Part shown: piece after piece, positions 17,020 through 48,132 of the stretch | Position numbering within the stretch: position 1 is the first letter of the stretch | How the letters are laid out: every line of letters starts with the position of its first letter | Assembly (NCBI GenBank): GCA_046714175.1 | Contig: JBKKBI010000045.1 | Location: 200-64,199 of the forward strand | Direction: 5' to 3' | Length of the DNA: 64,000 nucleotides | Source of the DNA: Acidimicrobiia bacterium | GTDB taxonomy: Bacteria; Actinomycetota; Acidimicrobiia; Spongiisociales; UBA11373 | Notes under the pieces: model-generated | Told to the model about the DNA's origin: nothing | The model's database searches: none | Seen by the model: only the letters and a program-made list of their open reading frames with translations | Translations under genes and position numbers: made by a program

Positions 17020-17140
17020 GTCACTGTCGTTATATCGAACCGCTATAGCGGTGTCAAATCGACCGAAAGACGGATTTCGCGGTATCAAAGGCCTTCGTGG
17101 CCTCCCGGGCCTTGTGATTCAAGGGGGAACGGTTGCCGGC

Positions 17141-17161
17141 TACCCGCTGCCCGCTGCCCGC
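17141..17161. repeat. Heptamer tandem array (TRCCCGC)x3, family B (reverse complement GCGGGYA)
   Basis: Sequence tacccgc tgcccgc tgcccgc, in the nfo-padR spacer. Confidence 0.7.
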
Positions 17162-17180
17162 CAGAGAAGACTCGGGGCGG

Positions 17181-17215
17181 CTTCCGGTCTCCGGCTTCCG
17201 GTCTCCGGCCTCGGC
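17181..17215. repeat. Heptamer tandem array (YTTCCGG/TCTCCGG)x5, family A (reverse complement CCGGAGA/CCGGAAG)
   Basis: Sequence cttccgg tctccgg cttccgg tctccgg cctcggc. It ends at the base next to the nfo stop codon (17216-17218). Confidence 0.8.
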
Positions 17216-17980
17216 CTAGCCCACCACCGAGCGCACCCAAGCGATATCCGCGGAGTGCTCCTTCGCCTCCCCCGGAGTCTCCACCACCACCGGAGCCGCC
17301 GCGGCGCGCAGCACTGCGGTCAGGACGGCCGGGGGAATCTCACCGTCGCCGAGATTGGCGTGGCGGTCGCGGTTGGATCCGTGGGGATCGCGGGAATCGT
17401 TGCAGTGCACCAGGTCGATGCGACCGGTGGCGGCGCGCACCCGGTCGATCAGGGTCGCCATGTCCTCGCCTGCCGCCCAGGCGTGGCAGGTGTCGACCAC
17501 CGCCCCCACCCGAAACTCTCCGATCACTTCCCACAACGGTCCGTACGAGTCGCACTCACGCAAGATGGCGTTGCCCCCGCCGGCGGTGTTCTCCAGCAGC
17601 ACCGGTACCGCCAGGTCGACAGACTCCAGCGCCTTGCGCCAACGCTCCCGACCGACGGCGACGTCCTCGTCGTCGCCGACATGGCCGCCGTGGACGATCA
17701 CCCCGACGGCTCCAATGTCGGCTGCGGCCGTGAGGGTGTCGGCGAGAATCTTCCGGCTGGGAATGCGGATCCGGTTGTTGGGAGAACCCACATTCACCAG
17801 GTAGGGAGCGTGTACGTAGATCGGGACTGTGGCGGCGAGCAGCTTCTCGCGGTCCGCTCTGGGAAGGGGTGCTTTCCATGATTGCGGGTTGGAGAGGAAG
17901 GTCTGCACCAGGTCGGCGCCGCGGGCCGTGGCCGCACCGAGTAGATCGTCGTTGGGAACGTGAGCGCCGACTCGGATCAC
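17216..17980 (-). CDS. nfo: Deoxyribonuclease IV (endonuclease IV)
   Basis: VIRVGAHV...[14 protein letters not shown]...VIVHGGH...LLENTAGGG...DTCHAWAAG...HCNDS matches endonuclease IV metal-site motifs. The GTG at 17980 overlaps the upstream stop (GTGA). The track ORF is extended to 18232. Confidence 0.88.
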
Positions 17981-24660: not shown

Positions 24661-26514
24661 ATGGAACCGAGAGAGCTCCTCGAACAGATCCGGGCCCGGG
24701 TAGGGACGCCGGTGGAGGAAGTCACCTTTGCCAGGTATCTGGAAATGGTCCGCGACGATCCCCGACTGGCCCGGCTTTCCCATGCCCTGATCGCCGACAC
24801 CATCGATGCCGCCGGCTTGTCGGTCGGACCGGACGGCGAAGAGCGCTTTGACCTCTTCGAGGGCGAACTGTTCGGAAACGAGCACGTGGTCCAGCAAGTC
24901 GCCGACTACTTCCGCGCCGCCGGCCGCCGCCTCGACGTGCGCAAGCGCATCCTCCTTCTCGTCGGGCCACCGGGCTCAGGCAAATCGACCCTGGTCAACA
25001 CCCTGAAGCGCGGGGTGGAGGCTTACACCAGCACCGATGACGGGCGGGTGTATGCGGTCAAGGGATCCCAGATGCACGAAGACCCGCTCCGTCTGATCCC
25101 CCCGGACCTACGCGACGGAGTCGACGTCTATGTCGAGGGCGACCTCAACCCGGAGGTTCGCTGGATGGTGGACAACATATACCAGGGCGACATCACCAAG
25201 GTCCCGATCCGGCGAATTCAGTTCTCCATCTCTCACGGCGTCGGGTTCGGAACGTTTGTCGCCACCGACCCGAGGTCCGAGGATCTCACCCGTCTCGTGG
25301 GCGACGTCGACCTCAGCCTGCTCGACCCGGACGATCCCACTTCGGCCAAGCGCGCCTACAAGTTCAACGGCGAACTCAACGCCGCCCACCGCGGCATGGC
25401 CGACCTGCTCGAAGTCTTCAAGATGGATGAGCGCTTCCTGGCCGTGCTCCTCAGCCTGAGCCAAGAGCAGATCGTCAAGACCAACGGGCCGGGGACCATG
25501 TACGCCGACGAGGCGGTGATCGCCCAGAGCAACCTCGCCGAGTATGAAGAACTGGTCGCCAACCCCCGGGCCGCAGCAATGCTGGATCGGCTCGTCGTTG
25601 TCAAGGTGCCGTTCGTGCTCTCGGTTCGCGACGAGATCCGCATCTATGAAAAGATGCTCTCCGGAGCCGACCTGGGGCGCAACGACGTCTCCCCGCTGGC
25701 GTTGCACACCGCAGCCACGTTTGCGGTACTCACCCGGCTCACCCATCCCGGCGGCGGCATGCAGGGTCTGATCCGCAAGCTCCACCTGTACGACGGCCGC
25801 TTCGGCAGCCACGGTGGAGCCGAGGACGTCGTACGTCTCCGCGAGAAGTCGCCCGAAGAGGGCATGACCGGCCTCAGCCCCCGGTACGTGATCAACCGGC
25901 TCTCCTCCGTGGCCGGGTCCACCAAGGGCTGCCTCGACGGGATGGCGGTGCTACAGGCATTGTGGGACGGGCTCCCGCAGCGCGCCGGTTTCACCGAGTC
26001 GGAGCGGGAACGATGGGGGGCATTGCTCAGCGCCACCGAGGCCGAGTACGACGAGATGGTCCAGCTGGAACTGCGCAAGGCAGCAGTCCTCGGCTACCGC
26101 GAGTCGGCGGAGAAGATGGCCCGCGCCGTCAAGGACGAAGTGGCGCGCTGGGAGAAGGAGGGAGAGCAAGCCAACATGCCGACACTGCGCCGCATCGAAC
26201 GGCTCATCGACGTTCCTCAGTACGGCCGGGACCGGTTCCGCAAGGCTCTGGTCGCCAACTTCGAGTTGAAGGGGCAGCGGGGCCGTCCGTTGCACACCCG
26301 GCATCCGCTCCTTGAAGAAGCCATCCAGCGCGCTTTGCTCCCCTCGTGGAGCGATGTCACCAAGATGCTCGAAGATCAGTCCGAAGGATTGGTCGAAGGC
26401 CTGGGGTCGGCGGGGTGGAAGAAGGGCTGCTCCCGCCACGTGGTGGAGTACGCCACCAAGTTCACTTCCAAGCGCGACCGCAAGAACGAGCAGAAGCCGA
26501 CTTGGTATAGCTGA
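24661..26514 (+). CDS. prkA: PrkA family serine protein kinase (AAA+ N-domain)
   Basis: 617 aa. Contains FEGELFGNEHVVQQVADYF and Walker A LLVGPPGSGKSTL. PrkA-type middle and C-terminal regions. Confidence 0.88.
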   Translation: MEPRELLEQIRARVGTPVEEVTFARYLEMVRDDPRLARLSHALIADTIDAAGLSVGPDGEERFDLFEGELFGNEHVVQQVADYFRAAGRRLDVRKRILLLVGPPGSGKSTLVNTLKRGVEAYTSTDDGRVYAVKGSQMHEDPLRLIPPDLRDGVDVYVEGDLNPEVRWMVDNIYQGDITKVPIRRIQFSISHGVGFGTFVATDPRSEDLTRLVGDVDLSLLDPDDPTSAKRAYKFNGELNAAHRGMADLLEVFKMDERFLAVLLSLSQEQIVKTNGPGTMYADEAVIAQSNLAEYEELVANPRAAAMLDRLVVVKVPFVLSVRDEIRIYEKMLSGADLGRNDVSPLALHTAATFAVLTRLTHPGGGMQGLIRKLHLYDGRFGSHGGAEDVVRLREKSPEEGMTGLSPRYVINRLSSVAGSTKGCLDGMAVLQALWDGLPQRAGFTESERERWGALLSATEAEYDEMVQLELRKAAVLGYRESAEKMARAVKDEVARWEKEGEQANMPTLRRIERLIDVPQYGRDRFRKALVANFELKGQRGRPLHTRHPLLEEAIQRALLPSWSDVTKMLEDQSEGLVEGLGSAGWKKGCSRHVVEYATKFTSKRDRKNEQKPTWYS

Positions 26515-26543
26515 TCCGATGCGGCTCAACGCTGCATCGGATC
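26513..26543 (+). terminator. Hairpin overlapping the prkA stop codon
   Basis: gatccgatgc / 11-nt loop / gcatcggatc gives a 10-bp perfect stem. No U-tract. Confidence 0.4.
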
Positions 26544-26547
26544 AACG

Positions 26548-26589
26548 TCATCCGTTGTCCGTTACCCGTTATCGGTTGACGGAGAACCG
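26548..26589. repeat. Degenerate heptamer array (NNNCCGT)x4-6, inverted relative to the adjacent (GCAACGG) array
   Basis: Sequence catccgt tgtccgt tacccgt tatcggt tgacgga gaaccgg. The core CCGT is the complement of the ACGG core of the next array. Confidence 0.65.
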
Positions 26590-26591
26590 GG

Positions 26592-26675
26592 GCAACGGGC
26601 AACGGGCAACGGGCAACGGGCAACGGGCAACGGGCAACGGGCAACGGGCAACGGGCAACGGGCAACGGGCAACGG
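26592..26675. repeat. Perfect heptamer tandem array (GCAACGG)x12, family C
   Basis: 84 nt of exact gcaacgg repeats. It lies between convergent prkA and cca and ends 1 nt before the cca stop codon (26677-26679). Confidence 0.97.
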
Positions 26676-26676
26676 T

Positions 26677-28065
26677 TTATAGGCCTCTCTGTCTCTTCCA
26701 CTCATCGAGCATCCGGTACGCCGCCGCTTCGCTGAACGGCCCCTCGTCGAGGCGGTGCTCGAGGAGCATGTCCAGCGCTGCGCCGACGAGCGGTCCGGGC
26801 TTCACCCCGAGATAGGCCATGACCTGATGGCCGTCGAGGGGGGGACGGATCGAGTCCAACTCCTCGCGCTGGCGCAGGTCGGCGATTCGTTCCTCCAACT
26901 CGTCGACCTGGCGGCTGATCTGACGGGACTTGCGATCGTTGGCGGTGGTGACATCACAACGAACCAGCGTGTTGAGCCGGTCGAGCAGCGCACCGGCGTC
27001 GCGCACGTAGCGACGCACCGCCCGATCCGTCCATCCCAGACGAAAGGTGTGCGCCCGCATGTGCAGGTAGACGAGGTCGGCGACCAGTTCGATGTCTTCG
27101 TTGCCGTAGCGCAGTTCCCGCATTCGGGTCCGGGTGAGCCGAGCCCCAACAACCTCATGATGGTGAAACGTCACGCCCTGGGGACCGATCTCGCGCGTGG
27201 CCGGCTTGCCGACATCGTGAAACAGAGCCCCGAGGCGCACTATGCGATCGGGCGGGCACTTCCCCACCACCGCGATCGTGTGCGCCAGCACATCCTTGTG
27301 TCGGTGTTCCGGATCCTGGGCTACGGCGAGCGCCGACAGTTCTGGGATGAATCGGTCCGCCAACCCGGTCTCGATCACCCCCCACAACGCGCTTTCGACC
27401 TGTTCGCCCACGACGAGCCTGTCGAACTCTTCGCGAATACGTTCCGCGCTCACGATCGACAGACGGTCGGCCAAGGTGCGAATCGCCGCCACTGCGGCTT
27501 TGTCCGGCGCGAACCCAAGGGTGGAAACGAACCGAAACAACCGGAGCATGCGCAGCGGGTCATCACCGAACGAGACATCAGGTGAGAGCGGCGTACGCAA
27601 CACACTGCGCCCGAGGTCGACCAGGCCGCCGAACGGATCCACCATCTCCGGCTGGGGGAGAAGCCGGAGGGCGATCGAGTTGACGGTGAAATCACGGCGC
27701 GACAGGTCGACCTCGAGGTCACGCGTGAAGGACACCTCCGGCTTGCGGCTGTCTTCGCGATAGCGCTCGCTGCGAAATGTGGTGACTTCGACGGAGACGT
27801 CACCGAGGCGGCCACCGACGGTACCGAACTCCTTGCCTACGGTGACGACTCCATGAGCCCATCCCTTGAGTAGGTCGTGGATCTGGTCCGGCGACGCGTC
27901 GGTGGTGAAGTCGAACTCGGCCACCGAACGGTCTCGCGCCATGAGTGCGTCCCGCACGCTTCCCCCCACCAGGAACAGCTGATGTCCGGCGTCGGCAAAT
28001 CGCCGCGCTACCCGCATGGGCACACCATCGGCGCGAAGTAGCACCTCAAGGCGTCTGGGGATCAT
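26677..28065 (-). CDS. cca: CCA tRNA nucleotidyltransferase (class II, HD domain)
   Basis: I prefer the start MIPRRLEV (ATG 28065). Contains FLVGGSVRDALM, the DFTTD motif, the RDFTVNS motif and HD-domain HRHKDVLAHT. Confidence 0.85.
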   Translation of the reverse strand: MIPRRLEVLLRADGVPMRVARRFADAGHQLFLVGGSVRDALMARDRSVAEFDFTTDASPDQIHDLLKGWAHGVVTVGKEFGTVGGRLGDVSVEVTTFRSERYREDSRKPEVSFTRDLEVDLSRRDFTVNSIALRLLPQPEMVDPFGGLVDLGRSVLRTPLSPDVSFGDDPLRMLRLFRFVSTLGFAPDKAAVAAIRTLADRLSIVSAERIREEFDRLVVGEQVESALWGVIETGLADRFIPELSALAVAQDPEHRHKDVLAHTIAVVGKCPPDRIVRLGALFHDVGKPATREIGPQGVTFHHHEVVGARLTRTRMRELRYGNEDIELVADLVYLHMRAHTFRLGWTDRAVRRYVRDAGALLDRLNTLVRCDVTTANDRKSRQISRQVDELEERIADLRQREELDSIRPPLDGHQVMAYLGVKPGPLVGAALDMLLEHRLDEGPFSEAAAYRMLDEWKRQRGL

Positions 28066-28191
28066 GGGGGAATGGTAAGCCCGCGAGTTCAGCCTGATTG
28101 GTTGGGGCAAGCAATTGGCGAGTCTGCTGCCAACGCTCATGGCAGCCGGTAGCCGCAGAGTGCCGACGATCGCGCCCGGACGACCAGCAGA

Positions 28192-30383: not shown

Positions 30384-30449
30384 CCGGAGACCGGAGACCA
30401 GAGACCGGAGACCGAGACCGGAGGCCGGAGACCGGAGACCGGACACCGG
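30384..30449. repeat. Heptamer tandem array (CCGGAGA)x~9.5, family A
   Basis: Sequence ccggaga ccggaga ccagaga ccggaga ccgaga ccggagg ccggaga ccggaga ccggaca ccggcca. It occupies about half of the 143-bp divergent spacer between the deacetylase and the GNAT gene. Confidence 0.93.
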
Positions 30450-30507: not shown

Positions 30508-31224
30508 GTGACTGCCGTGCGCCTCGAAGGCAACTGGCCCGGGCCGGTGACGATTCGGCGGGGTTGGGCGCGTGCCGAATCCCGACCCTGGAACGACACC
30601 GTGCCGATGGCACATCTACGCCTGGTGCGCGGCAGTGGCAGTGGCTTCATCGTCGACTGCGTCGCGGCGCTCACTGGTGCCGGTGCCACCGCGGTGTTGT
30701 CGCCGCCCCTCCCCCGCTCGGCGCAGAAGACCTGGCGCCAGGCCGACTTTCTCCCTCACTCCAGCTTGGCCCTGATGCGCCGCAATCTGGGCCCGGTCCC
30801 ACCACCGACACACCTCGTCATCGCCGGAACCGAAGAAGACGTGACCGAGGCGCTGCGTATCGATGCCGCCGCCTTCGATCGATTCTGGCGTTTCGATGAG
30901 AGCGCACTCGCCGAGGCTATCGCCGCAACCCCGCAGTCGGTGCTGCAGGTGGTCAAGGCTCCCAATGGCGGACTGGCCGGTTACGCGGTGACCGGAGCCG
31001 GCTCGACTTTGGCCTACCTGCAGCGGGTGGCGGTCGATCCGCGGTTTCAAGGCAACGGGATCGGACGCTCCCTGATCCGCGCTTCGGCGCGGTGGGCCAA
31101 GAAGTCGGGAGCGACCTCGATCATGCTCAACACCCAGGTGGAGAACGAGGCCGCCATACGCCTCTACGAGTCGGAGGGTTACGACACCCTGGACGAACCG
31201 CTCGAGGTGTTGATCAGCGGGTGA
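30508..31224 (+). CDS. GNAT family N-acetyltransferase
   Basis: GTG at 30508. C-terminal LQRVAVDPRFQGNGIGRSLI...NEAAIRLYESEGY is the acetyl-CoA binding motif. The track ORF (30088) is over-extended across the repeat. Confidence 0.8.
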   Translation: MTAVRLEGNWPGPVTIRRGWARAESRPWNDTVPMAHLRLVRGSGSGFIVDCVAALTGAGATAVLSPPLPRSAQKTWRQADFLPHSSLALMRRNLGPVPPPTHLVIAGTEEDVTEALRIDAAAFDRFWRFDESALAEAIAATPQSVLQVVKAPNGGLAGYAVTGAGSTLAYLQRVAVDPRFQGNGIGRSLIRASARWAKKSGATSIMLNTQVENEAAIRLYESEGYDTLDEPLEVLISG

Positions 31225-37214: not shown

Positions 37215-38028
37215 GTCTCCTCCTGAATTCGTCGGCGAGCGACCGGTAGGCCTTGGCCCCGATGCTCTTGGGATCGAACGACTCGATGGGTTCGCCAAAG
37301 GACGGTGCCTCGGCGAGTCGCACTACGCGTGGAATTACAGTATCGTAAGTAGTCTTACCGAAGTGGTCCCGAACCTGGGCTGTCACCTCGGCCGCCAGGG
37401 TCGTCCGGCGGTCGTACATGGTTATGACCGCGCCCTCTATCTTGAGTTGAGGGTTAAGGTTGGTCTGTATTGCCTGGATGCTGCGCAGTAGTTGCGTCAA
37501 GCCCTCGAGCGCGTAGTACTCGGCCTGAATCGGAATCAGCACCTCATTGGCTGCGGTGAGGGCGTTGACCGTGATCAACCCCAGGCTGGGAGGGCAGTCG
37601 ATGAACACCGTGGTGAACTTCTCCTGCATCTTGTCCACCGCGGCGGCGAGCACCCGCTCCCGGGAGTATCGCGCCACGAGCTCGATCTCGGCCGCGGCCA
37701 GGTCGATCGAGGACGGGATCACGAACAGACCCTTGGTTCCGGTGGGGAGCACCACCTCGTCGAGGGGCCGATCACCCATGAACACGTCGTAGATCGAGTG
37801 CTGCACGGTGCGCCGATCTACTCCCAGGCCGCTGGTGGCATTCGCCTGGGGGTCGGTGTCGATCACCAGCACCCGCTCCCCCTTGGCAACCAGGGCAGCA
37901 GCAAGATTCACGGTCGTCGTGGACTTGCCGACACCACCCTTTTGGTTGGCGACGGCCACCACGACGCCGTGGGAGCGCGTCGTCTTATTCACCAGCGCGC
38001 ATGATAAGGAGCCAGGCCGGACCGTCAA
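37201..38028 (-). CDS. parA: Chromosome partitioning ATPase ParA/Soj
   Basis: Deviant Walker A VANQKGGVGKSTT. ParA-type motifs throughout. The start is either 38028 or the GTG at 37992. Confidence 0.92.
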   Translation of the reverse strand: MTVRPGSLSCALVNKTTRSHGVVVAVANQKGGVGKSTTTVNLAAALVAKGERVLVIDTDPQANATSGLGVDRRTVQHSIYDVFMGDRPLDEVVLPTGTKGLFVIPSSIDLAAAEIELVARYSRERVLAAAVDKMQEKFTTVFIDCPPSLGLITVNALTAANEVLIPIQAEYYALEGLTQLLRSIQAIQTNLNPQLKIEGAVITMYDRRTTLAAEVTAQVRDHFGKTTYDTVIPRVVRLAEAPSFGEPIESFDPKSIGAKAYRSLADEFRRRHGRA

Positions 38029-38629
38029 GGATTCCGGGTGGTACTTCGGTCACCTTCATCCCCAAACCGAGTGCCTCCCCCACTCCGACCAGGTCCCGGG
38101 TGCGATCGGGGGGCTCGGGCCGGCGACTGAGGCCGAGAACTGCGGCGCCGTCGGGGGTGAGGAGTCGGGCCGCCAATCCTACCGCCTCCGGTGCCCGCAC
38201 CGACCCCCGGAAGGCGAGGCCCTGCCACTCATCGGCGACATCGAACACGTCGCCTTGGGCGACATGGACGTTGTCCAGACCGAGCACTTGGACTGCGCGC
38301 GTCAGGAGCCGGATCCTCCGCCCGCCCCGATCCAGCAATGTGACTGCAGTTCCCGGCCACAGAATGGCCAGCGGAACTCCGGGAAGGCCGACGCCGCTGC
38401 CGACGTCTAGAAGTTCTGCAGGGGGAGTGGGCCAGGCGGCGGCAAAGCTCAGCGCGTCGCCGATGTGCCGTCCCCAGATCCGAGGCGACTCCCGCGGGCC
38501 GAGGCCCCCGGCCGGAATCGCCTCGGCGATCAACCACGAGGCGAACTGCTCCAAGCGCACGGACCGTGCCGAATCGAGTGGATACCCCGCCCACGCCGCG
38601 GCGTTGGCGGCGAGATCGGGGGAGTCCAT
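37985..38629 (-). CDS. rsmG: 16S rRNA (guanine527-N7)-methyltransferase RsmG
   Basis: 214 aa. SAM motif LLDVGSGVGLPGVPLAI. Position upstream of parA. Confidence 0.88.
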   Translation of the reverse strand: MDSPDLAANAAAWAGYPLDSARSVRLEQFASWLIAEAIPAGGLGPRESPRIWGRHIGDALSFAAAWPTPPAELLDVGSGVGLPGVPLAILWPGTAVTLLDRGGRRIRLLTRAVQVLGLDNVHVAQGDVFDVADEWQGLAFRGSVRAPEAVGLAARLLTPDGAAVLGLSRRPEPPDRTRDLVGVGEALGLGMKVTEVPPGILDGPAWLLIMRAGE

Positions 38630-38641
38630 CTGCGGAGGTTA

Positions 38642-38738
38642 CCGGAACCCGGAGACCGGAAACCGGAGACCGGAAACGGAAACCGGAGACCGGAAGGACG
38701 GGAAGGAAGGGAAGGACGGAAACCGGAGACCGGTAACC
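38642..38738. repeat. Heptamer tandem array (CCGGAGA/CCGGAAA)x~13 with a degenerate GGAAGG centre, family A
   Basis: Sequence ccggaac ccggaga ccggaaa ccggaga ccggaaa cggaaa ccggaga ccggaag ... ccggaga ccggtaa. It starts 13 nt upstream of the rsmG start codon. Confidence 0.9.
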
Positions 38739-38743
38739 GCTAC

Positions 38744-38854: not shown

Positions 38855-38890
38855 TCGGGAAGCGGGTAGCGGGTCGCGGGTCGCGGGGTG
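38855..38890. repeat. Heptamer tandem array (GCGGGTM)x~4-5, family B
   Basis: Sequence gtcggga a gcgggta gcgggtc gcgggtc gcggggt. It ends 6 nt from the jag stop codon (38897-38899). Confidence 0.8.
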
Positions 38891-48018: not shown

Positions 48019-48023
48019 TGACT

Positions 48024-48058
48024 CGCGACCCGCGACCCGCGACCCGCTCCCCGCAAGA
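48024..48058. repeat. Heptamer tandem array (CGCGACC)x3 plus 2 degenerate units, family B in reverse orientation (GACCCGC)
   Basis: Sequence cgcgacc cgcgacc cgcgacc cgctccc cgcaaga. It starts 6 nt after the gyrB TAA stop. Confidence 0.85.
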
Positions 48059-48097
48059 TCGCGTTACAGCGCTCACTTGGCGTCGGGCTTGGGTCTG

Positions 48098-48125
48098 GCG
48101 GGAAGCGGGTAGCGGGCAGCGGGCA
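48098..48125. repeat. Heptamer tandem array (GCGGGNA)x4, family B, inverted relative to 48024..48058
   Basis: Sequence gcgggaa gcgggta gcgggca gcgggca. It ends 8 nt before the gyrA start. Confidence 0.85.
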
Positions 48126-48132
48126 GCCTGCA

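Follow-up and report, generated by a model that had tools for sequence, protein, structure and literature searches.

In a 64-kb window (the whole stretch analyzed here, 64,000 nt) from an uncultured soil actinobacterium of the class Acidimicrobiia, the convergent genes prkA and cca are separated by a 162-nt spacer that is occupied by three elements: a GC-rich hairpin at the prkA stop codon, a short arm of degenerate heptamers and a perfect array of about 12 GGGCAAC units. The locus represents, in clean form, a kind of bacterial repeat that is already known though still unexplained, and it is not a new system. We consider it probable that the spacer holds an old, heptamer-armed 3′-end hairpin, one arm of which was recently expanded by slippage, and that it belongs with the known heptanucleotide simple sequence repeats (SSRs) of bacteria. 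The source is a metagenome-assembled genome (MAG) of 1.89 Mb, 67% GC and 103 contigs, which we call G000.

Under the explanation that we favor, the spacer comprises two hairpin-forming elements, a plain GC-rich hairpin at the prkA stop and a second one with tandem 7-nt arms, itself a member of the lineage-specific population of heptanucleotide SSRs found throughout the genome. This second hairpin is probably old at the locus, with relatives carrying an equivalent design that often has a GCAAY core, and its sequence would turn over by unit mutation followed by slippage-driven homogenization. The arm next to cca would recently have grown to 12 identical GGGCAAC units, most likely through replication slippage, with the other arm left short and decayed. 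The paired part of about 27 nt and the stop-proximal hairpin would most likely act as terminators without a U-tract, or as 3′-end protection, for both converging transcripts, and the roughly eight surplus units could be tolerated because a convergent spacer has no promoter, ribosome-binding site or open reading frame (ORF) to disturb.

A perfect array between two stop codons

Tandem Repeats Finder (TRF) reports the array at period 7 with 12.3 copies, 100% matches and a score of 172, which makes it the longest perfect array in the genome and the second best by TRF score. A first-pass annotation of this DNA had described 12 perfect units ending 1 nt before the cca stop, and this description stands. 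The other elements that it named are likewise present where it had placed them, as judged from the sequence, the ORF list, TRF and an inverted-repeat search (Table 1); the hairpin at the prkA stop, which it had given as 10 bp, is larger, with arms of 14 nt that are 93% complementary. On the plus strand, the array presents 12 G3 tracts separated by 4-nt loops. It contains stop codons in no frame of either strand, and the cca transcript carries its C-rich strand.

The array is the most slippage-prone tract of the window. Contingency loci carry their repeats within an ORF or a promoter; this array lies wholly between two convergent stops, where a change in unit number alters no ORF and no promoter, and it is therefore not a contingency (phase-variation) locus. 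The C-terminus of the cca product aligns with those of its orthologues, which stop at a similar position. A consensus scan returned no promoter-like (sigma-70-type) sites at the locus and no terminator-like sites between positions 26000 and 27200. In Rfam, no family reached its gathering score, and the best match for the locus (26.9 bits against a threshold of 90 bits) is spurious.

Pairing and predicted folding of the spacer

The left arm is described by TRF (26546–26577) as period 7, with 4.6 copies and 76% matches, in agreement with the four to six degenerate heptamers annotated earlier. It reads as the reverse complement of NNAACGG-type units and appears, from this sequence, to be a decayed inverted copy of the array unit. 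By inverted-repeat search, a 27-nt stretch of it (26552–26578) can pair with the array in any of nine registers, at 81% complementarity. The resulting stem is interrupted by single mismatches and 1-nt bulges and, G-U pairs included, contains an unbroken run of 13 pairs in RNA. Only some 4 of the 12 array units can pair with the left arm simultaneously, so that two thirds of the array has no partner. The linker between the arms, ACGGAGAACCG, looks like one unit of the CCGGAGA repeat family of the same genome.

Across the whole spacer, the minimum free energy (MFE) is −86 kcal/mol on the plus strand (z = −7.4) and −73 kcal/mol on the minus strand (z = −4.8) relative to dinucleotide shuffles. The left arm and array together give −60.0 kcal/mol (plus) and −47.1 kcal/mol (minus), whereas shuffling only the left arm gives averages of −41.7 and −30.0 (z = −4.9 and −4.4), and none of 300 such shuffles with the array held fixed matched the observed energy. 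When the left arm was instead replaced with random heptamer arms of the same composition, 21 of 300 (plus) and 6 of 300 (minus) matched it, placing the observed arm among the best 2–7%. Because random heptamer arms reach the observed energy this often, the complementarity of arm and array is, in these folding models, real but not extreme. The proposal that the two arms fold into a long stem thus survives in that their pairing beats shuffles, whereas the periodic 3-nt internal loops that were part of it are absent and most array units take no part. The check proposed along with it, folding against shuffled heptamer arrays, is answered by the left-arm shuffles.

The stop-proximal hairpin has an RNA MFE of −25.8 kcal/mol (plus) and −26.7 kcal/mol (minus) and is the sole helix in the centroid structure; on these predictions, it is likely to be a 3′-end or terminator structure for prkA. 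Each gene end thus has a GC-rich stem-loop next to its stop, at 26512–26544 for prkA and in the arm/array stem for cca, as an intrinsic terminator would. The array alone self-pairs weakly (−18.8 kcal/mol), and a G-quadruplex (G4)-aware model gives it three tandem G4s (−26.1 kcal/mol).

A shared design in orthologous spacers

We delimited the prkA–cca spacer in eight species by tblastn with both C-termini. The orthologous spacers range from 15 to 224 nt and share no alignable sequence, yet six of the eight carry heptamer arrays as inverted arms. A GC-rich hairpin directly after the prkA stop recurs in G000, G004, G003 and G012. The arms themselves differ from species to species. The G004 spacer reads TTCGCAATCCGCAATTCG...CGAATTGCGGATTGCGAA, forming a stem longer than 20 bp, and that of G012 reads GAGCGATGAGCGAT...ATCGCTCATTGCTC. 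G005 has GGGCAAT/GCAATGG units opposite CCATTGC units, G001 has CCCGACA units opposite GTCGGGT, and C24 has AATCAAG/AGTCAAG units opposite CTTGACT/CTTGATT; the L019 spacer is the 15-nt one and holds two ATCAAGA units. Units that lack a G3 tract, such as CGCAATT and GAGCGAT, are also used. Fold z-scores of the orthologous spacers run from −1.6 to −7.6.

A GCAAY/RTTGC core is over-represented in the G000, G005, G003, G004 and G012 spacers (nominal P ≤ 0.0015 each), with P values that are inflated because tandem copies are not independent. Our inference from these comparisons is that a hairpin armed with heptamers of the GCAAY type is older than these species and that its units have since changed in concert.

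Two of these spacers show additional features. In G005 (L012:4715–4938), heptamers of the GCAATGG type alternate with three copies of a unit of about 37 nt (GGTCGGTCGCCTKCGGCGACCTC) that contains a hairpin, so that the heptamer array underlies a repeat of higher order. In G001 (L011:4675–4720), a stretch of CGACGGG-type heptamers lies within the predicted 3′ end of the cca ORF, so an array may either have become part of the coding sequence or have shifted the stop codon.

Heptamer arrays across the genome

Period 7 dominates the tandem repeats of G000. Of the perfect tandem repeats of at least four copies with periods from 4 to 12, 17 have period 7, and only two have another period, one of 4 and one of 12. 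TRF finds 160 period-7 arrays with a score of at least 40 and 82 with a score of at least 50; the other periods not divisible by three have 0–12 arrays each at score 40 and none at 50. The prkA–cca array is therefore one of about 160 in its genome, which counts against reading the locus as a special structure, as the first-pass annotation had done.

These arrays concentrate outside genes. Based on codon-model gene calls (1865 genes, 91% coding), there are 1.23 arrays per kb in convergent spacers, 0.98 in tandem spacers and 0.60 in divergent spacers, against 0.0075 in coding DNA, a density about 100 times higher in spacers than in genes. In tandem spacers, they sit near the upstream stop, at a median of 26 nt from it and 70 nt from the next start. 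The 160 arrays use 43 canonical units, of which the top three cover 41%: GAGGGGC (25 arrays), CCGGAGA (21) and GGGCAAC (19). Different heptamer families adjoin within several spacers, and the flanks of the 19 GGGCAAC loci are unrelated, which argues that the arrays are not copies of a mobile element. With no conserved termini or flanks among these 19 arrays, a mobile element of the miniature inverted-repeat transposable element (MITE) or repetitive extragenic palindromic (REP) type could be ruled out.

A G3 or C3 tract is present in 75 of the 160 arrays and in none of the CCGGAGA family, which ranks second in abundance; where G3 arrays lie in tandem spacers, their G-rich strand is sense in 21 cases and antisense in 20. 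As a class, the arrays behave as strand-symmetric DNA-level repeats, for which the prkA–cca hairpin is a special case and not the rule. Among spacers free of arrays, 31% of convergent ones have a fold z-score below −2, compared with 8% of divergent and 12% of tandem ones, which suggests, as far as folding models go, that plain hairpins serve as gene-end signals in this organism.

One array elsewhere in the genome captures units evolving in place. Along some 125 nt of uninterrupted array on contig C37 (7390–7516), the unit changes step by step from GAGGGGC through GAGAGGC, GAGAGAT, GACAGAT, CACAGAT and ACGGGCA to GCGGGCA, a pattern that fits mutation and subsequent local expansion. With 182 nt and 80% matches, (CGGAGAC)x25 on contig C48 (13268–13449) is the largest array of heptamers in the genome. 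Breakage of contigs at long arrays was considered as a major effect and discarded, with only 4 of 206 contig ends falling at heptamer arrays.

Presence and absence among relatives

We sampled 25 related genomes, at 11–400 kb each; an additional one, G019 (2.4 kb), was uninformative. Heptamer arrays per 100 kb reach 8.4 (G004) and 22.6 (G003) within the genus, 25 (G008), 8.4 (G010) and 12.5 (G012) within the family and 10 (G027) and 8.7 (G030) within the order. G011, a complete 2.2-Mb genome from the same family, has none in 400 kb, and G009, G013, G015, G017, G020 and G026 have none in the 38–40 kb covered for each. The split can be sharp, as in the comparison of G011 and G008, two genera of one family with 0 arrays in 400 kb and 10 in 40 kb, respectively. 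Each array-rich genome has its own unit vocabulary; GGGCAAC is common to G003, where it includes three arrays of 11.6–11.9 copies. On these sampled sequences, the arrays appear to be a lineage trait that is present or absent among related genera.

No genetic determinant of this split emerged among NucS, MutS, Ku and reverse transcriptase. NucS is present in array-rich and array-free genomes alike, MutS is absent from all genomes examined, Ku occurs in all array-rich genomes and in most array-poor ones too, and a reverse transcriptase is absent from all examined genomes but one, G000 being among those without it.

Relation to known heptanucleotide repeats

Heptamer arrays are not confined to this lineage. 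Exact six-copy perfect arrays turn up in many phyla, complete isolate genomes included, and we counted the genome stretches that contain them. GGGCAAC was found in at least 119 stretches, the scrambled unit GCGACGA, which has no G3 tract, in at least 120 and the scrambled unit GGGACAC, which keeps the tract, in 49. These counts point to a process that does not depend on the sequence of the unit: GGGCAAC is not special, and a G3 tract is unnecessary.

Intergenic tandem heptamers are also familiar from the cyanobacteria Calothrix and Nostoc, under the name short tandemly repeated repetitive (STRR) sequences. In Beggiatoaceae, most TAACTGA repeats are found immediately 5′ of start codons, and a role in translation has been proposed for them (MacGregor 2015, PMC4679880). 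Like the arrays of G000, the cyanobacterial and Beggiatoaceae repeats are intergenic, have species-specific units and can mix heptamers within one spacer; their units are AT-richer (PMC4679880), and the prkA–cca array lies instead between two stop codons.

As summarized in PMC4679880 and PMC4692102, Mrazek, Guo & Shah (2007, PNAS) identified heptanucleotide repeats as the commonest long simple sequence repeats (LSSRs) in many bacteria and proposed polymerase slippage as their origin. The arrays of G000 belong to this class: their 7-nt unit is tandemly repeated beyond chance, and the genome has a period-7 excess that is mainly non-coding. As in those summaries, the prkA–cca array consists of head-to-tail 7-nt units in non-coding DNA, with period 7 above all other non-triplet periods, and the scattered phylogenetic distribution described there, which includes Actinobacteria, is matched by a scattered distribution among the relatives of G000. 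Unlike the LSSRs as portrayed in the two summaries, the array here is one of the two arms of a hairpin that keeps its design from species to species, and G000 draws on a small recurrent set of units. Those summaries do not mention Acidimicrobiia, and our full-text literature search turned up no publication that treats heptamer repeats in this class.

A second body of work concerns the GGGAATC repeats of Xanthomonas and the GGGGA(C/T)T repeats of Nostoc PCC 7120, which form G4s in vitro (Rehm et al. 2015, PMC4692102). These GGGNATC/GGGGAYT arrays have a strong non-coding bias, lie close to stop codons, are depleted between divergent genes, occur as inverted pairs between convergent genes and persist at the same loci with varying length and sequence among related species; their function is unresolved (PMC4692102). 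The present array resembles them in its G3N4 unit, its run of at least four units, its loops of no more than 4 nt and its perfection (theirs extend to tens of units; PMC4692102), as well as in its inverted partner between convergent genes and in a locus that is kept while length and sequence vary among species. The arrays of G000 resemble them in their non-coding bias, their nearness to stops and their lower density in divergent than in convergent spacers. The present array differs in having GGGCAAC as its unit instead of GGGNATC or GGGGA(C/T)T (PMC4692102), and G000 has many unit families, half of them without a G3 tract. The strand rule reported for those repeats, with the G-rich strand sense downstream of an ORF and antisense upstream, does not hold in G000, where the two orientations are about equally common, and no preference like theirs for four units (PMC4692102) is evident there by inspection.

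Weighing the favored explanation

The reading of the spacer as an old heptamer-armed hairpin with one slippage-expanded arm has several observations to contend with, all of which weigh against it. No U/T tract follows either hairpin, by consensus scan or by inspection of the sequence. Genome-wide, an inverted two-unit partner lies within 120 nt of only 22 of the 160 arrays (14%), compared with 7–9 (about 5%) in reverse or complement controls, and array-bearing spacers are barely more structured than array-free ones; on both counts, a hairpin does not typify the class, and the one at prkA–cca could be incidental. No public RNA runs containing the locus were found. The figure of 12 copies rests on one assembly. 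Slippage alone, moreover, leaves unexplained the preference for period 7, the small set of units and the existence of array-less sister genera with the same repair genes.

U-tract-less, "I-shaped" hairpin terminators have been proposed for high-GC Actinobacteria in the Mycobacterium literature, and their in vitro efficiency is disputed. The two hairpins here resemble them as GC-rich stem-loops right after stops, without a T-run and common to convergent genes, and hairpins are likewise enriched in the convergent spacers of G000. They differ in that one of the two has arms made of tandem repeats, which allow nine pairing registers, and one of these arms is three times longer than the other.

Alternative explanations

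The array and its inverted arm could be neutral filler, by-products of a period-7-biased mutation process in dispensable DNA with no role in transcription, which would be ended by the stop-proximal hairpin alone or by Rho. We consider this unlikely but worth taking seriously. Arrays occupy every class of spacer and are excluded only from coding DNA, the near-even strand counts of G-rich tracts betray no transcriptional bias, most arrays lack an inverted partner and add little structure, heptamer units are interchangeable across bacteria and the L019 orthologue manages with its 15-nt spacer. However, heptamer-armed hairpins recur in six of eight orthologous spacers despite full sequence turnover, well above the genome-wide rate of inverted partners, and arrays are twice as dense in convergent spacers as in divergent ones.

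A broader idea, which we regard as distinctly unlikely, is that a switchable process acting throughout the genome exists in some genera of Acidimicrobiia and, by extension, in other soil lineages rich in GC, where it makes and homogenizes 7-nt arrays from a small, genome-specific vocabulary and maintains repeat-armed gene-end hairpins through complete sequence turnover. If this were true, the prkA–cca spacer would be a long-lived, "self-renewing" terminator with repeat arms, seen shortly after one arm had expanded, and the sharp on/off pattern among sister genera that have NucS and lack MutS would point to a single determinant that could be found by comparative genomics.

On another reading, which we rate as very unlikely, an active lineage-specific system would supply a factor that writes heptamer units, copies them between loci or binds them, and the 12 perfect copies would reflect active homogenization. 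The concentration of the arrays on few units, the presence of GGGCAAC at 19 loci with unrelated flanks and the lack of arrays in G011 and several sister genera, as sampled, are what such a system would leave; by a hand estimate, two arrays are also about 4–18 times likelier to share a unit within G000 than between G000 and a congener. Against this, G000 has no reverse transcriptase, the trait does not follow the distribution of NucS, MutS or Ku, our searches for these four yielded no candidate factor, conserved flanks or termini were not found at the 19 GGGCAAC arrays, and the gradual unit transitions seen in place fit mutation plus slippage.

We find it highly improbable that the array acts as a G4 element in which its 12 G3 tracts form up to three tandem G4s, in the template DNA of cca or in the 3′ untranslated RNA of prkA, and block or regulate transcription as proposed for GGGNATC. 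The sequence fits G3N4 repeated 12 times, the G4-aware model favors three G4s for the isolated array, and similar heptamers with the same positional trends form G4s in vitro (Rehm et al. 2015, PMC4692102). In the full spacer, however, the arm/array duplex competes with G4s in the folding model. More broadly, fewer than half of the arrays in G000 have a G3 or C3 tract and the CCGGAGA family does without one, G-rich strands show no sense or antisense bias, orthologous spacers use non-G3 units, and the scrambled non-G3 unit is at least as widespread globally as GGGCAAC.

Taken by itself, this is a very clean but otherwise ordinary heptanucleotide microsatellite without consequence for gene switching. 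Its value is as a data point on why bacteria favor 7-nt tandem repeats and whether such repeats act. That question is sharpened by a heptamer-armed hairpin that is kept across species while its unit is replaced, by an array trait that is on or off among sister genera with an equal set of mismatch-repair genes and by G3 tracts that are dispensable within G000 and globally. Together, these three results argue against the G4 explanation and make a comparative search for a determinant feasible.

Copy number and assembly support

That the assembler created the array or inflated its length is extremely improbable: even though the source is a short-read MAG and depth ratios imply 7–10 copies instead of 12, the 86-bp array is shorter than a read, similar arrays exist in complete isolate genomes, and both junctions, along with a pure-repeat unitig, recur with 100% identity when four soil metagenomes are assembled independently in Logan. 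The locus occurs in six metagenomes as Logan contigs (k = 31), which end 30 nt into the array; because they break inside it, the count of 12 is without independent verification. No second assembly with the left junction was found in the metagenome and genome contig collections searched. The depth of the repeat unitig relative to its flanks implies 9.8, 7.3, 7.8 and 7.3 copies for four samples from a single study, a weak hint at shorter alleles or at coverage bias and not a measurement. Because the array is pure, recent expansion can reasonably be inferred, and it is plausible that the locus varies in length, as the first-pass annotation had proposed.

Features of the locus and other arrays in the window

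Coordinates for the locus are collected in Table 1.

Table 1. Genes and repeat elements at the prkA–cca locus, in window positions
Feature	Position	Strand	Details
prkA (PrkA-family AAA/serine kinase)	24661–26514	+	ORF; Pfam AAA_PrkA 4e-80, PrkA C-terminal domain 1e-24
prkA stop codon TGA	26512–26514	+	
GC-rich hairpin over prkA stop	26512–26544		arms 14 nt (26512–25, 26531–44), 93% complementary; 5-nt loop
prkA–cca convergent spacer	26515–26676		162 nt
Degenerate heptamer arm (left arm)	26546–26578		CCGTTGT CCGTTAC CCGTTAT CGGTTGA
Linker/loop between the two arms, ACGGAGAACCG	26579–26589		read from sequence; loop region in MFE structures
Perfect heptanucleotide array (GGGCAAC)x12.3	26590–26675		ends 1 nt before cca stop
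cca stop codon TAA	26677–26679	−	1 nt from array
cca-type tRNA nucleotidyltransferase/poly(A) polymerase-family gene with HD domain	26677–28140	−	ORF; Pfam PolyA_pol 5.9e-31, PolyA_pol_RNAbd 3.5e-13, HD 1.1e-8

Several other heptamer arrays lie in the same window. A second heptamer-armed inverted pair is found at 48020–48127, where (GACCCGC)x4 (48020–48047) faces (GCGGGNA)x4.3 (48098–48127) about 50 nt away. At 30384–30449, (CCGGAGA)x9.6 with 88% matches takes up much of a 143-nt divergent spacer between a deacetylase-family gene (start 30364, minus strand) and a gene that begins at 30508 (plus strand); unlike at prkA–cca, changes in unit number there could shift promoter spacing. Composite arrays of the ACCGGAA/ACCGGAG family and of CGGGTAG (38641–38739 and 38856–38887) flank the spacer upstream of a minus-strand gene at 37985–38629. 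At 17134–17217, (TGCCCGC)x4 is followed 16 nt later by (CGGCTTCCGGTCTC)x2.3, two unit families in one spacer. Elsewhere in the genome, the first 70 nt of contig C1 (1–70) form a low-complexity end that stands apart from the remaining genome sequence (G12, C7 and A12 followed by AT-rich sequence, as read on the reverse strand) and is probably an assembly or adapter artefact.

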